Positions 2,281-9,520 of a DNA stretch of 64,000 bases are shown in pieces. Position numbers and translations under genes: made by a program. This stretch comes from Escherichia coli (lineage in GTDB: Bacteria > Pseudomonadota > Gammaproteobacteria > Enterobacterales > Enterobacteriaceae). The DNA is taken from assembly GCF_050320075.1 (NCBI RefSeq), contig NZ_CP190018.1; one strand, 5' to 3'. Numbering within the stretch: position 1 is the first letter of the stretch; every line of letters begins with the position of its first letter. The notes beneath the pieces were generated by a model. That model had not been told where the DNA came from. It made no database searches and saw nothing but the letters and a program-made list of their open reading frames with translations.

Positions 2281-2545
2281 ACGTCGCCAGTTGCGAAAAT
2301 TATTTACAGGGGGCAGCGTTAAGCATCTAAAGATCTTGTTCTATGATTAGAATGTTTCCTCGTTGCACTCTCGTATAGTTATTTAATGGGAAGATGTACT
2401 CTATATGTTGTGTTTTGGTGATAAATGAAGCCAAAGGAAGGAGATTTTGCTTGATTGATGGGCGCTCTTTGCTATACACCTTGTATTGAGAAGGAGAAGT
2501 AATCAAGGATTAAGCTGGCTTTTGTCAAAAATCTGAAAAGCTTTT

Positions 2546-2575
2546 TTGACTGAATACGATAGCGAGTTGTACTAT
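2546..2575 (+). promoter_or_regulatory. Putative sigma70 promoter (TTGACT-N18-TACTAT) for the first cargo operon, overlapped by an inverted repeat GTCAAAAA...TTTTTGAC
   Basis: -35 TTGACT at 2546-2551 and -10 TACTAT at 2570-2575 read directly; inverted repeat arms at 2524-2531 and 2543-2550. Confidence 0.3.
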
Positions 2576-2609
2576 TTGCGCCCTCAAAAGTAACCGGCGG
2601 CTGGGTAAA

Positions 2610-2984
2610 ATGGGGAAGCAAGGCAAAGGCAAAGGCAACAAAAATCAGGTTAAGGTTACGTGGGCTCAGGCGTGGCGGGATGTAATGATAAGAGCCATGT
2701 CTAATGGTCAGTTGATACCTATTACCATCAGTATTATTTTAATGATTGCTGCATGGAGGTTACCAAAAACAGACTTGTCCAATTTAGCCTTCTCTATTGT
2801 TGATGGCTTTAAGGAGCATTCCTTGGTTGGTTGGGCTATCTCGGTAATAGTGGGTTTGGCTTGGTCTGCACATGCGCGAATCATGAGGCGCTGTTTTAGT
2901 TCCGAGGCACAGAGAATCGGTAACGAGAAAACAAAGTATCAACAAAGACAGACCACTCAAGCCTTGGGTACAAGTGATAAATAG
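2610..2984 (+). CDS. Small membrane protein, 124 aa, two predicted TM helices, basic Lys/Gly-rich N-terminus (cargo)
   Basis: ORF track; hydrophobic stretches LIPITISIILMIAAW and LVGWAISVIVGLAWSA; AT-rich relative to phage backbone; start codon choice uncertain. Confidence 0.55.
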   Translation: MGKQGKGKGNKNQVKVTWAQAWRDVMIRAMSNGQLIPITISIILMIAAWRLPKTDLSNLAFSIVDGFKEHSLVGWAISVIVGLAWSAHARIMRRCFSSEAQRIGNEKTKYQQRQTTQALGTSDK

Positions 2985-3004
2985 TTGTTTATTTAGGAGT
3001 TATT

Positions 3005-3562
3005 ATGCTGACAGTGCTGTTTTATGTGCTGTTGGGTTTAGGCGCAGCACACTTCATTTACGAGCGAATCATTTTGCCGTCCATCCGACTTCATTATAGA
3101 AACCAATTGTTTGCGCTTCGTGATGTCGCTAGGAGGAAAATCATTGATGGAGGTTCCGATACTTCCATGCAAGCGGCAACACTTGTGCATGACTCATTGA
3201 ATAACGCTATCAATAGATTGCATTTACTCACGTTGCCAAACAAATTTCGTGCTCAAAAGCGTATGGCAGAAAACCATGCAATAAGGCAGAAAATTCGGCG
3301 TGAGATAGATGTTTTCAAACGCTGTGATGATAGAGAAGTTGTTGATGTACTGTTTAAATCCGGTCGGATACTTGAAAATGTACTGTTATTCAATAGCTTA
3401 ATGTTATTGCTTTACATGTTTCCATTTGTCCTTGCTGTATGGTTCTGTGTTAGGGTCATAAAGACAGCAAGTAGTTTAGTACAGTGGGTCAAAGGAAGAG
3501 ATTTAGAGGAAGCTATAATGCTGCTTCCTGATACTCAGGTTGAAAAGGTTGTATACGCATAA
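3005..3562 (+). CDS. Membrane protein, 185 aa, hydrophobic N-terminal and C-terminal segments (cargo)
   Basis: ORF track; AGGAG-like RBS 7 nt upstream of ATG; 20 bp after the preceding ORF, so co-operonic; hydrophobic segments MLTVLFYVLLGLGAAHFIY and LMLLLYMFPFVLAVWFCV. Confidence 0.65.
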   Translation: MLTVLFYVLLGLGAAHFIYERIILPSIRLHYRNQLFALRDVARRKIIDGGSDTSMQAATLVHDSLNNAINRLHLLTLPNKFRAQKRMAENHAIRQKIRREIDVFKRCDDREVVDVLFKSGRILENVLLFNSLMLLLYMFPFVLAVWFCVRVIKTASSLVQWVKGRDLEEAIMLLPDTQVEKVVYA

Positions 3563-3590
3563 AAATCACCCCTTAGGGGGTGATTTTTTT
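3563..3590 (+). terminator. Rho-independent terminator after the two-gene membrane operon
   Basis: aatcacccc-TTAG-ggggtgatt stem-loop followed by T7 run immediately after the stop codon. Confidence 0.6.
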
Positions 3591-3801: not shown

Positions 3802-4749
3802 ATGAAGATATTTATTAGTTGGTCAGGTCAGGACAGCCTGGAGATAGCAAAAGTATTACGGGATTGGATACCGAATGTTATTCAAGTAGCTGAGCCGTAC
3901 GTATCAGCGGAAGATATTGATAAAGGCACTCGCTGGGCGACTGATATATCAAAGGAACTTGATGACTCTTCTTATGGGATTATTTGCCTTACAAAAAATA
4001 ATATTAATGCACCGTGGATAAATTTTGAGGCGGGTGCTTTAGGTAAAAAGGTTGATAAGAGCCGGGTTAGTCCTTTCTTGTTTAAAATTAAACCATCTGA
4101 GATAACAGGCCCAATATTACAATTCCAGTATACTCGTTCGGATGATAAGAACGATATTTTGAAGTTGATGTTGTCAATAAATAATCAAGCAGGATTTTTG
4201 ACTGAAGAACGCTTAACTAAAGCTTTCGAGCAATGGTGGCCAAGTTTAGAGCGTGAGTTAGATAACATTCAAGATATTAACCCTGTAGATAAAGATTCCA
4301 CTAAAAAAACAAAAGGTGATTCGACTTCTGAGATACAAAATCTTTCCAAAATTGTTGAAAGTTTGCTGGATATTAGCCGAACAAATCACCAATTATTGCG
4401 TGATCCAGCATCATTATTGCCAGAAGAATATGTTAGCAAAATAATAAACAGGGAAGGGCGTAAAGAAACTGTTTTAAAAATTGTAGCTTCTGATTTATTA
4501 TCCATGCATCATTCACTAATTCGTGTAAAAAGAAGATTTATTCGCCGTGGTATTGATGAAACATCTAGGAGCGAGTTAATTGAATCATTAAATAAAATGA
4601 TAATGGATTGTTCTAGAGTAATCGCTCACTTAGATAATTATTGTGGGGCTTCATCAAACAATATGTTCAATAGTGCGCTTAGATTGCGGACCAGAAATTT
4701 AATTGACATGATGGATGAGGAGGATGCAGAACGGGATGAAATGGAATAA
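3802..4749 (+). CDS. TIR-like domain protein, 315 aa: N-terminal TIR-like fold (~130 aa) plus helical C-terminal domain of unknown function (cargo, candidate defence protein)
   Basis: N-terminus MKIFISWSGQDS...GIICLT...APWINFEAGAL matches the bacterial TIR/TIR-like signature (FISYS-type strand 1, conserved W..E.G motif) by eye; no HMM search run. Confidence 0.65.
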   Translation: MKIFISWSGQDSLEIAKVLRDWIPNVIQVAEPYVSAEDIDKGTRWATDISKELDDSSYGIICLTKNNINAPWINFEAGALGKKVDKSRVSPFLFKIKPSEITGPILQFQYTRSDDKNDILKLMLSINNQAGFLTEERLTKAFEQWWPSLERELDNIQDINPVDKDSTKKTKGDSTSEIQNLSKIVESLLDISRTNHQLLRDPASLLPEEYVSKIINREGRKETVLKIVASDLLSMHHSLIRVKRRFIRRGIDETSRSELIESLNKMIMDCSRVIAHLDNYCGASSNNMFNSALRLRTRNLIDMMDEEDAERDEME

Positions 4750-4830: not shown

Positions 4831-5293
4831 CTTATAATGGGTATGTTATTTTTATTTTGATAAAATCATTAAAATTGTCGATGTTATATGAATGCACATG
4901 TATTATTAATGTTAGAAGATTATGCCTGCTTACGGCTATTGTGCTGAATTCAACTATGAACGCATCAGTATTAAAATCGTTCCATGAAATGTTCTTCGTC
5001 TACAGCAGATGATGGGCAACGAAAAAATGACGCTGAGTGAGTTGGTCGGGGAGAATTGTTAGAGGTATTTATGGAGTGGTTTAATAATATCGGTCAATCC
5101 TGAGTTGCAGCATCACATAGACGATAGGGAATCTCTCCAGTCGTTCTGGAATGGCAGCGTTGAACAACAAGCACAGCGAGGCGTTAGATGCCCATCAGAT
5201 TGACACAGAGGGTTTATGAATCGCTGGGATTTACTTAGTTTGAAAAATAATATATTTATATGTTTTTGTATTGTGTTTGTTAAGGAGTTTGGA

Positions 5294-5500
5294 TTGAAAA
5301 GAAAACTGATTTGTGTTATGGCTTTTTGGGGGGCGTTGCTGGCTGGTTGTAATGAGAGTAATAAAAAAGAAGTTGAGGGTTGTATTGAAAGAGGTGTCCA
5401 ATATTTTATAGAGATTGGTTCTTACCCTAAATTAAGTGATGGGCGTGATGCTGTGAAAGTTGCTACTGAACGTTGTAATAGAACAATAACGGCTTTCTGA
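5294..5500 (+). CDS. Small putative lipoprotein (about 68 aa precursor), signal peptide with lipobox LAGC (cargo)
   Basis: In-frame TTG at 5294 with TAAGGAG RBS 7 nt upstream gives MKRKLICVMAFWGALLAGC; the track starts at 5216 and an ATG lies at 5318; stop overlaps next start (TGATAATG). Confidence 0.45.
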   Translation: MKRKLICVMAFWGALLAGCNESNKKEVEGCIERGVQYFIEIGSYPKLSDGRDAVKVATERCNRTITAF

Positions 5501-5502
5501 TA

Positions 5503-6420
5503 ATGGATTATACGAGCTATATAATAGGACAGCTTCAGGTTGAGGATATTATTGATGCAATTAAAGGCGTTAATAATACTAATGTCATAAAAGATTATGT
5601 GCTGCCTGTAGTATTACCAATTATATCTTCTGTGCTGAGTTACTTTATTGCAACTAGGTTGTTTTATCGGCAGGAGTACCTTAAAGCACAAAGAAGAAAG
5701 GTAAGCGTTGTAAATAAATGTATTTATGACTACTTTTCTGCAATGACAACGTTGTTGCAAATTAAAGGGAATTATTATGGTGGGGTAAGTATAAGTGAAA
5801 ATCCTATCGAGAGGGCTTTAGCTTTTCCTGTTGTGGTTTTTTCTGGTGCTCCTCTATCATCAGATTTAAGTGAGTTGGCCTGTATATTGAGTCAAAAGGG
5901 AGTAGGGAATAATAGAGAGCCAGCAAAGACTACTAACTGGGGGGATGCTTTTGCTGTTAGTGATATAGCAAGAAGGTTTAACAGCCTATTGGCTGCATTA
6001 AATGTTAGGAATGATTTTGATGACACCTATAGAGGAATGATTATTGAATCAACAGGTTCACCTTTGCCTACGATGCGTTTTAAAAATGATGATATTGTTA
6101 ATGCTATAGGTAGTAATAAGGCAGCTTATTACATTGATATTACTGAGCAAATAATGATTATGATAGATGTTTTGTTGCTTGATATTAATCTGTTGCTCAA
6201 AGAGTTGCCATTGTATGCTGAATCGCTGTTTGACAAAAGAGTAATGCAAGAAGATTCAGGGATTCTTAAATTCAATGATTTGCACGAACGTTTTCCTCTA
6301 CTTATGAAACCTGTAACGCCACCTTCGATTAAACTCATGTCTGATTATTTGGGGTACAGTGAAGATGAGATCTTACGACGCTATCCATACCCGTTCTTTA
6401 ATATGCATGATTGTGAATGA
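5503..6420 (+). CDS. Hypothetical protein, 305 aa, single N-proximal TM helix, no domain recognised (cargo)
   Basis: ORF track; translationally coupled to the upstream lipoprotein ORF; hydrophobic segment VLPVVLPIISSVLSYFIATRLFY; strongly AT-rich. Confidence 0.65.
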   Translation: MDYTSYIIGQLQVEDIIDAIKGVNNTNVIKDYVLPVVLPIISSVLSYFIATRLFYRQEYLKAQRRKVSVVNKCIYDYFSAMTTLLQIKGNYYGGVSISENPIERALAFPVVVFSGAPLSSDLSELACILSQKGVGNNREPAKTTNWGDAFAVSDIARRFNSLLAALNVRNDFDDTYRGMIIESTGSPLPTMRFKNDDIVNAIGSNKAAYYIDITEQIMIMIDVLLLDINLLLKELPLYAESLFDKRVMQEDSGILKFNDLHERFPLLMKPVTPPSIKLMSDYLGYSEDEILRRYPYPFFNMHDCE

Positions 6421-7748: not shown

Positions 7749-9520
7749 CAGTAAAACTCCAGAATGGTGGATGTCAGCGGGGTGCTGATACCGGCGGTGA
7801 GTGGCTCATTTAACAGGGCGTGCATGGTTGCCCAGGCGAGGTCGGCGTGGCTGGCTTCCTCGCTGCGGCTGGCCTCATAGGTGGCGCTGCGTCCGCTGCT
7901 GGTTATGGTCTTGCGGATAGCCATAAACGAGCTGGTGATGTCGGTGGCGCTGACGTCATATTCCAGACAGCCACGGCGGATGACGTCTTTTGCCTTGAGC
8001 ACCATTGCGGTTTTCATTTCCGGCGTGTAGCGGATGTCGCGCGCGGCGGGATAGAACGAGCGCACGAGCTGGAACACGCCGACACCGAGGCCGGTGGCAT
8101 CAATACCGATGTATTCGACGTTGTATTTTTCGGTGAGTTTGCGGATGGATTCCGCCTGAGTGGCAAAGTCCATGCCTTTCCACTGGTGACGCTCAAGTAT
8201 TCTGAATTTGCCACCGGCCACCACCGGCGGTGCCAGTACCACGCATCCGGCGCTGTCGCCACGGTGTGACGGGTCGTAACCAATCCATACCGGACGTGAG
8301 CCGAACGGATTGGCGGCAAACGGCGCATAGTCTTCCCATTCTTCCAGCGTGTCGACCATGCAGCGTTGCAGCTCCTCAAACGGGAACACCGATGCCTTGT
8401 CGTCAACAAATTCACACATGAACAGGTTTTTAAAATCGTCGGCGCTGTTTTCGCGTTTGAGCTGCTCAATGTCGAACAATGTGCAGCCGCCTTTCAGGGC
8501 GTCCTCAATGGTGACAATCTGCCGCCACTGGCCGTCCGCACAGAGAAGACCACCGGCAAGGGCGTTATGACTGACGTCGATTTCCACACGTTCGGCGGCG
8601 CTGGCGCGTCCCCGGTTGAACAGTTCACCCGACCAGAACGGGTAGGCGTCGTGCGCCAGCGTGGACGGGGTGGAGAAATAGGTCGAGCGCAGGTGACTCT
8701 GTGAGGCCATACCTGATGCCACCTTACGCAGTACCTGAAAATTCGGGATCCAGAAAATCTCGTCGACGTACAGGTCGCCGTTATGGCTCTGTGCGGTGTT
8801 GGAGTTGGTGCCGAGAAAAATCAGTTTTGCGCCGTTATTGCCCAGGACAATCGGGTCACCGGTCAGGTCAACGTCAACCAGCCGGGCAAAGGCGATGATG
8901 TATTCGCGGAACACATACGCCTGCGTTTTACTGGCCGACAGAAAAATCTGGTTATGACCGGTTTTCAGGGCGCGCAGCAGCGCCTCGCGGGAAAAATAAA
9001 ACGTCGCGCCAATCTGGCGGGATTTCAGGATATCGCGGATGCGGTGCTCAAGCCCGGCGCGATACCAGTGCAACTGATAGTCGAAAGACTGCTCAAAGAA
9101 AATCTGCTCCAGCTTTTCGATGGCCTCGTCACTGAAAAAATTCTTTTTCGGTTTGCGACGCCCGCCTTTGTTGCGGTTAGCAACGTTCGGATTAAGGTCT
9201 GCCTCGTTGCCGGTCTGACTGTAGCGGTTGACCCGCGCCAGTCGTTCAATCTGGCGTCCGAGCAGGTCAATTTCCTTGAAGTCACCGCCGGTTTTCTGCG
9301 GTTTTATGATGAGCTGGGTCAGCCGCGCTTCCAGACTCATTTCGACACGGCTGATGGGGGCAACGCTGTCCCAGCCGTCGCGCTGTTTCCAGCTCTGCAC
9401 CGTCGGGCGTTTCATCTGCAACATGGCGGCAATCTGCGGCACGGAAAACCCCTGCCAGTACAGCTGCGCCGCCTGACGACGCGGGTCGTGTAAAAGAGTG
9501 GTGTCTGTGGTGATGGTCAT
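7748..9520 (-). CDS. P: Terminase large subunit (P2 gpP-like)
   Basis: 590 aa from ATG at 9520 with GAGGT RBS (track ORF starts 30 nt further upstream); divergent from the O-N-M operon as in P2. Confidence 0.9.
   Translation of the reverse strand: MTITTDTTLLHDPRRQAAQLYWQGFSVPQIAAMLQMKRPTVQSWKQRDGWDSVAPISRVEMSLEARLTQLIIKPQKTGGDFKEIDLLGRQIERLARVNRYSQTGNEADLNPNVANRNKGGRRKPKKNFFSDEAIEKLEQIFFEQSFDYQLHWYRAGLEHRIRDILKSRQIGATFYFSREALLRALKTGHNQIFLSASKTQAYVFREYIIAFARLVDVDLTGDPIVLGNNGAKLIFLGTNSNTAQSHNGDLYVDEIFWIPNFQVLRKVASGMASQSHLRSTYFSTPSTLAHDAYPFWSGELFNRGRASAAERVEIDVSHNALAGGLLCADGQWRQIVTIEDALKGGCTLFDIEQLKRENSADDFKNLFMCEFVDDKASVFPFEELQRCMVDTLEEWEDYAPFAANPFGSRPVWIGYDPSHRGDSAGCVVLAPPVVAGGKFRILERHQWKGMDFATQAESIRKLTEKYNVEYIGIDATGLGVGVFQLVRSFYPAARDIRYTPEMKTAMVLKAKDVIRRGCLEYDVSATDITSSFMAIRKTITSSGRSATYEASRSEEASHADLAWATMHALLNEPLTAGISTPLTSTILEFY

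Follow-up and report, generated by a model that had tools for sequence, protein, structure and literature searches.

Does the perfect inverted repeat that lies across the predicted promoter of a phage-borne membrane-protein operon serve as the operator of a repressor, or does it have another origin? The DNA analysed here, which we refer to as the window, is a stretch of 64 kb (64,000 nt) from Escherichia coli, position 1 of which opens the start codon (ATG) of a replication gene A of the P2 type (1–2280, Pfam Phage_GPA). (Note that three further RefSeq E. coli assemblies, NZ_CM169482.1, NZ_AP045736.1 and NZ_CP133923.1, likewise begin exactly at the gene A start codon and have apparently been rotated to the phage replication gene.) Gene A and the first gene of the operon, encoding the 2TM protein, are separated by an intergenic region of 329 bp with a GC content of 39.5%. 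In this region the initial annotation had noticed an 8-bp inverted repeat, one arm of which overlaps the −35 hexamer of a putative promoter, and had taken this to be the geometry of a repressor operator, suggesting that the operon is regulated rather than constitutive.

The inverted repeat and the promoter that it overlaps

Both the repeat and the promoter hexamers are found, on the + strand, where the initial annotation had placed them. The left arm, GTCAAAAA (2524–2531), and the right arm, TTTTTGAC (2543–2550), are 100% complementary and are separated by 11 nt, so that the half-sites stand 19 nt apart; between positions 2281 and 2620 this is the one inverted repeat of at least 8 nt. The −35 hexamer TTGACT (2546–2551) is followed, after a spacer of 18 nt, by the −10 hexamer TACTAT (2570–2575), which lies 34 nt before the ATG within the conserved sequence GTTGTACTAT. 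Together the two hexamers match those of σ70 promoters (TTGACA and TATAAT, spacer of 16–18 nt) at 9 of 12 positions. The overlap between the right arm and the −35 element comprises the first five bases of the hexamer, the remainder of the arm being part of a run of six T residues (2542–2547) that abuts and enters the −35 element. This T-run is invariant in the relatives described below and is possibly a UP-like element or the initial transcribed region of a σE promoter.

Taken alone, the inverted repeat is no more than would be expected by chance. The 64-kb window contains 64 perfect inverted repeats of 8 bp whose loops measure 0–20 nt, or about one per kb, and when the intergenic region was shuffled with preservation of its dinucleotides at least one such repeat appeared in 10% of trials. 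The observation is thus real but statistically ordinary. For the full dyad pattern with up to three mismatches, 0.35 occurrences would be expected by chance in a window of this size, and the flagged copy is unique in the window. The promoter, too, is unexceptional by its consensus score, since 13 promoter-like hexamer pairs were found in 6 kb where 12.3 were expected; it stands above chance because it is kept in diverged relatives and not because of that score. A divergent promoter on the minus strand, in which the left arm would be read as TTGACA, was considered and rejected, there being no acceptable −10 element at 15–18 nt by reading of the sequence and none in the promoter scan.

Conservation of the upstream region among diverged relatives

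To the extent that a small protein family allows, we compared the DNA upstream of the 2TM gene among relatives. The comparison covers 12 distinct upstream sequences, few in number and related to one another, drawn from encoding contigs and viral contigs; the encoded proteins are 52–100% identical. The cassettes reside in P2-like prophages (of E. coli and Hafnia), in one 186-like prophage and in lambdoid prophages, and the Plesiomonas cassette is located between the endolysin and spanin genes, that is, in a lysis cassette. All of the diverged relatives carry some 300–380 bp of upstream DNA, with a mean alignment identity of 57–62%. Close relatives are uninformative on variation because their intergenic regions are identical, as is the case in 13 complete E. 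coli genomes and phage P2_AC1. A protein scan of genome contigs for more variants yielded one identical locus, and a metagenome scan with a DNA pattern yielded three true loci, all of known types, its other matches being due to chance. A distant blastn search with the upstream region of one diverged type, L002, found the AC1 type alone among complete E. coli genomes, and it is only from 2520 onwards that BLAST detects similarity between this type and the window. (One contig labelled as a Collinsella sp. metagenome-assembled genome, JAIJJM010000013.1, encodes a 2TM protein and carries proximal upstream sequence identical to those of the window; the label is probably a binning error.)

The predicted σ70-type promoter is the most widely kept element of this region. 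The −10 motif TGTAnnAT is present in all 12 loci, 32–36 nt from the ATG, and in 9 of the 12 a T-run leads into TTGAC(T/G) with a spacer of 17 or 18 nt; TTTTGAC itself is invariant in the eight P2/186-type loci and in Plesiomonas. Because both hexamers are conserved in position across diverged loci, the promoter call is supported, and a published fragment carrying the native promoter and starting at the equivalent of 2345 is functional (see below). The right arm of the repeat would accordingly be read as belonging to a conserved σ70-type promoter, TTTTTTGACT-N18-TACTAT, of the 2TM-1TM operon, with a predicted transcription start near 2580–2583. The location of the promoter of what proves to be a published defence system is now reasonably secure. 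Downstream of it, immediately upstream of the start codon, lies a block of the 5′ untranslated region (AACCGGCGGCTGG / AACCnGCGGCTGG, 2592–2604, + strand) that is conserved in 11 of the 12 loci, more strongly than a Shine–Dalgarno sequence alone would need.

The symmetry of the repeat has not been kept in the same manner. In the same geometry the arms are complementary at 8 of 8 pairs in the window only, at 6–7 of 8 in six E. coli-type loci, and at 1–5 of 8 in the five others, which still keep the −10 element of the promoter. Among the eight sequences of one alignment (A4), standard pairing is found at pair 5 in two and at pair 8 in five, and the number of pairs changed on both sides is zero. 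The right arm is invariant because it coincides with the −35 element and the T-run.

These patterns bear directly on whether a dimeric repressor, encoded by the host or elsewhere in the prophage, might bind GTCAAAAA-N11-TTTTTGAC, occlude the −35 element and so render the operon inducible. Repressor operators that overlap −35 elements are well known, among them those of λ OR and OL, LexA boxes and the CI sites of phage 186, and the dyad of the window resembles them in having one half-site on the −35 element and in being perfect. By an estimate from repeat densities, a real promoter would also have its −35 element overlapped by one arm of a perfect repeat of 8 bp through chance in only ∼1–3% of cases; in seven E. 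coli-type loci GTCAnAA and TTTTGAC together always span 27 nt; and the perfect dyad, which is unique to the window allele, differs from GTCATAAA by a single T-to-A change that selection for a new operator would equally have produced. Against this, the changes in the left arm are uncompensated, with pairs 5 and 8 broken in most relatives, and the left arm is absent from the Hafnia, Plesiomonas and lambdoid loci, where the −10 element stays and where, in Hafnia and Plesiomonas, the −35 element stays as well. Unlike in the known operators, the half-sites are 19 nt apart, which is atypical of a simple dimer, the symmetry and second site are unconserved, and there is no evident repressor: the cargo open reading frames gave no match to a helix-turn-helix or regulator family. 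In phage AC1, moreover, the only other match to the dyad has the maximum of three mismatches and lies outside the C/cox region, and the C/cox intergenic region (8600–8680 of phage P2_AC1) contains two CCTATATAGG palindromes, probably the immunity operators of AC1, which are unrelated to the dyad. The upstream module is also common to phages with different, unrelated immunity repressors. We therefore did not uphold the operator interpretation of the initial annotation, and consider a role for the dyad in repressor binding quite unlikely; two further arguments, the better account of the left arm and the published phenotypes, are given with the evidence from which they come.

Might the repeat instead act as RNA, a weak hairpin followed by a U-run that attenuates or terminates transcription arriving from upstream, be it read-through from gene A or transcripts started at an upstream block (block C, below) or at a σE promoter? 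Each relative can fold some small hairpin that ends in or next to the invariant U-run, formed from different sequence in each; in the window, GCUUUU (2518–2523) can pair with AAAAGC (2536–2541), with U6 following. Yet across the loci these structures have energies of −5 to −9.5 kcal/mol and z scores of −0.9 to −1.8, which makes them indistinguishable from shuffles, and the stem, with two G-C pairs and a loop of 11–12 nt, shows no covariation. The hairpin of the repeat itself is weak (−7.5 kcal/mol, z −1.8), and 10 of 200 shuffles fold equally well. As a candidate intrinsic terminator it was rejected on the same values, together with its two G-C pairs, the position of the U-run inside the 3′ arm and the lack of any call here in the terminator scan, whereas the true terminator of the unit has a z score of −5.7. 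A search of positions 2200–2700 against Rfam gave no match at E ≤ 1. A function of the repeat in RNA is thus highly improbable.

Two other blocks of the upstream region are conserved (both + strand). Block C consists of CTTGATT (2450–2456), 11 nt and TTTGCTATACA (2468–2478), of which TTTGCTATACA is invariant in eight loci and TTG is kept in all; it resembles a −35 element with a TG-extended −10 element, although A stands at −7, and might serve as a further promoter upstream or as a site at which a factor binds. Block B (2399–2412) is in the relatives a near-palindrome, CAC[T/A]A-TATG-T[A/T]GTG, of which four of the seven pairs are formed in the window. Either block may represent an additional promoter or a regulator site, and if the operon has a regulatory site of the classical kind, blocks B and C and the block in the 5′ untranslated region are better candidates than the flagged dyad. 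Inspection by eye of the surroundings of the dyad and of blocks B and C against consensus sequences, a weak procedure, gave no convincing match to P2 Ogr-type sites (TGT-N12-ACA) or to sites for IHF, Fis, CRP, σ54 or σ32.

A putative σE-type promoter in relatives and its remnant in the window

In seven relatives the equivalent of the left arm, GTCATA, GTCAGA or GTCTAT, is found exactly 16 nt downstream of (T/G/A)GAACT(T/A). This arrangement resembles the promoters recognized by E. coli σE, the consensus of which comprises a −35 element GGAACTTTT and a −10 element (T/C)GGTCAAAA, with a strong preference for 16 nt between GGAACTT and TCAAA, a discriminator of 5 or 6 nt and a purine at +1 (PMC1312014; PMC1804206; PMC6648896). 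At −107 to −109 from the ATG, the seven loci match GGAACTT plus GTCAAA at 10–11 of 13 positions; on both strands of the 64-kb window there are 10 sites with at least 10 of 13 matches and none with at least 11. The pattern GAACTW-N15-GTC is present at the orthologous spot in seven of seven relatives and absent from the window, where 0.55 occurrences would be expected. GAACT(T/A), the 16-nt spacer length and GTC persist in the L002-type, L015-type and Hafnia lineages even though the sequences of their spacers bear essentially no relation to one another. The G at the predicted σE start is kept in six relatives. We suggest that these relatives would carry a σE promoter, GAACTT-N16-TCAnA, in tandem with and just upstream of the σ70 promoter, with its +1 at the G equivalent to 2535.

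σE-like sites are also seen in lambdoid-type loci, at ∼2724–2752 of L023 (GGAACTT-N16-TCAAA), ∼1904–1930 of L011 and ∼2724–2751 of L024. These lie ∼235–280 nt upstream of the 2TM start, a position that differs from that in the P2/186-type loci.

In the window one half of this arrangement is left. The left arm contains GTCAAAA (2524–2530), identical to the published σE −10 consensus and orthologous to the GTCnnA of the relatives, and a purine follows it at 5–6 nt (the equivalents of the predicted start being G2535 and A2536). A matching −35 element is missing: among positions 15–19 nt upstream of TCAAA the best fit to GGAACTT is 3 of 7, with no AAC. The sequence homologous to the (T/G)GAACT(T/A) of the relatives in alignment A4 is AGAAGTA (2495–2501, + strand), which has lost the critical C and stands 23 nt from TCAAA, and the alignment with the L002 type places extra bases, AAGCTGGC (2512–2519, + strand), in the former spacer, so that ∼7–8 nt have been added and the spacer measures 23 nt vs 16. 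From the state of the relatives we infer that the left arm, which would descend from the −10 element of an envelope-stress promoter, is probably vestigial in the window, and that in the AC1-type allele, with its AGAAGTA and its 23-nt spacer, that promoter would have decayed. Its status as a relic is thus read from the relatives, the window itself being without a σE −35 element.

Placing a σE −10 element just upstream of a σ70 −35 element generates an inverted repeat automatically, because GTCAA and TTGAC are reverse complements. Our preferred explanation, to which we assign a probability of roughly 0.6, is that the repeat is a by-product of a σE-type −10 relic and a σ70 −35 element that happen to be 11 nt apart, and is not a functional unit. 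This explanation starts from what is established, namely the sequence, the pattern of conservation, the lack of compensating changes and the phenotypes published for the lysogen and the plasmid clone; the assignments to σE and σ70 and the transcription starts are predicted and probable. A GAACTT partner at a spacing of 16 nt also accounts for the left arm better than an operator does. The tandem arrangement does not, for its part, require the invariant T-run or the fixed 27-nt span from GTC to GAC in the seven E. coli-type loci.

It is also conceivable that the A- and T-tracts of the two arms belong to a curved, AT-rich region in front of a horizontally acquired promoter, acting like a UP element, as a nucleation site for H-NS, or as both, the symmetry and the resemblance to σE promoters being coincidental. 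The cargo island is indeed AT-rich (33–43% GC vs 51–57% for the phage backbone), A5 and A4 tracts precede the predicted start by ∼55 and ∼45 nt, and the 10% of shuffles that contain such a repeat fit a coincidence. However, the invariant GTC and GAACTT, at exactly 16 nt in lineages with diverged spacers, are left unaccounted for, and neither the L015 type nor Plesiomonas keeps the A-tracts. We consider this explanation unlikely.

Tandem promoters of the kind that we propose for the relatives occur in the host, as at rpoH and degP, where a σE and a σ70 promoter serve one gene. The P1 and P2 promoters of greA are another such pair (PMC2836576). The relatives are similar in that GAACTT-N16-TCAnA is directly upstream of a σ70-type promoter and a single gene is served; they differ in having been assigned by sequence and conservation only, and the window differs further in keeping the σE −10 element alone. 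Because the σE-type promoter has decayed in this allele, the σ70 promoter alone most likely drives the operon of the window, and it would do so in lysogens and without a phage factor. The suggestion of the initial annotation that the operon is regulated rather than constitutive may hold in relatives, by way of an alternative σ factor, whereas in the window the element concerned has decayed.

For the window itself the consequence is small, the dyad being best read as incidental. If the σE-type promoter of the relatives is real, it would tie a phage-borne membrane-protein module to the envelope-stress response of the host. We put forward tentatively, as a possibility that is open to considerable doubt, that the 2TM-1TM cassette is wired to σE in most of its carriers, as a defence or moron function induced by envelope damage, that the allele of AC1 and the window, the sole carrier of a TIR gene, has lost this wiring, and that the change that perfected the dyad could mark another form of control.

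The 2TM-1TM cassette and its autonomy

The operon consists of two genes on the + strand: the first (2610–2984) encodes the 2TM protein and matches the PADLOC 2TM-TIR model over its full length (E 2e-58), and the second (3005–3562) encodes the 1TM protein and matches the 1TM-TIR model, again over its full length (E 3e-75). The unit is closed by an intrinsic terminator (3561–3590, + strand), in which a hairpin at 3561–3588 with a 12-bp stem (−17.8 kcal/mol, z −5.7) is followed by a U-run. A TIR gene lies further downstream (3802–4749; full-length match to PADLOC TIR-TM, Pfam TIR_2) and forms a separate unit, because the strong terminator closes the 2TM-1TM unit ahead of it.

The operon is the 2TM and 1TM part of the 2TM-1TM-TIR system of the P2-like phage AC1, which is already known. 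The genes and the upstream DNA are the same, the window being 99% identical to P2_AC1 over positions 2281–3000, and so is the site of insertion, the P2 hotspot between gene A and cos/Q; they differ in that the 2TM gene of the window contains three AAGGCA repeats vs four in AC1. These repeats, (AAGGCA)n at 2619–2640, encode a Gly/Lys-rich run (GKGKG) near the N terminus of the 2TM protein and vary in frame, with three copies here and four in M21816 and phage AC1.

[quoted passage not shown] 2022, PMC9122126). The insert of that plasmid, pFD240, begins at the equivalent of position 2345 of the window (Rousset et al. 2022, PMC9122126), and the dyad and promoter that it carries are identical to those of the window. 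Because defence is seen in AC1 lysogens and equally with a plasmid clone that has this upstream DNA, the operon is neither silenced nor dependent on the phage, which argues further against the dyad as an operator: unlike the genes under λ OR and OL, LexA or 186 CI control, this operon is not shut off in lysogens. (Note that read-through from the vector may contribute to the phenotype of pFD240.)

No TIR gene was found near the 2TM-1TM pair in the diverged relatives (L002, L003, L008, L011, L015, L019–L021, L023 and L024), and this gene seems to be an addition confined to the AC1 type. That the 2TM-1TM cassette is usually without a TIR gene bears on how the 2TM-1TM-TIR system is to be defined. 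What is modestly new here is the anatomy of the promoter, the probable σE wiring of the relatives together with its decay in the window, and the autonomous character of the 2TM-1TM pair.

In its autonomy the pair resembles the morons of phages, which are promoter-gene-terminator cassettes that function independently in prophages, as exemplified by bor and lom of λ and tin and old of P2. Like these, the cassette of the window has its own promoter region and terminator, has an atypical, lower GC content (about 39% vs about 54% for the backbone), is active in the prophage state and occupies varied insertion sites in unrelated phages (P2-like, 186-like and lambdoid); it differs in that its conserved upstream region is unusually long (∼260–330 bp) and contains several invariant blocks.

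Further downstream lies a second cargo unit (5216–5500 and 5503–6420), for which there was no family match. Within its 94-aa open reading frame, which is without RefSeq annotation in strain M21816, a lipoprotein-like signal (MAFWGALLAGC) comes after an internal start.
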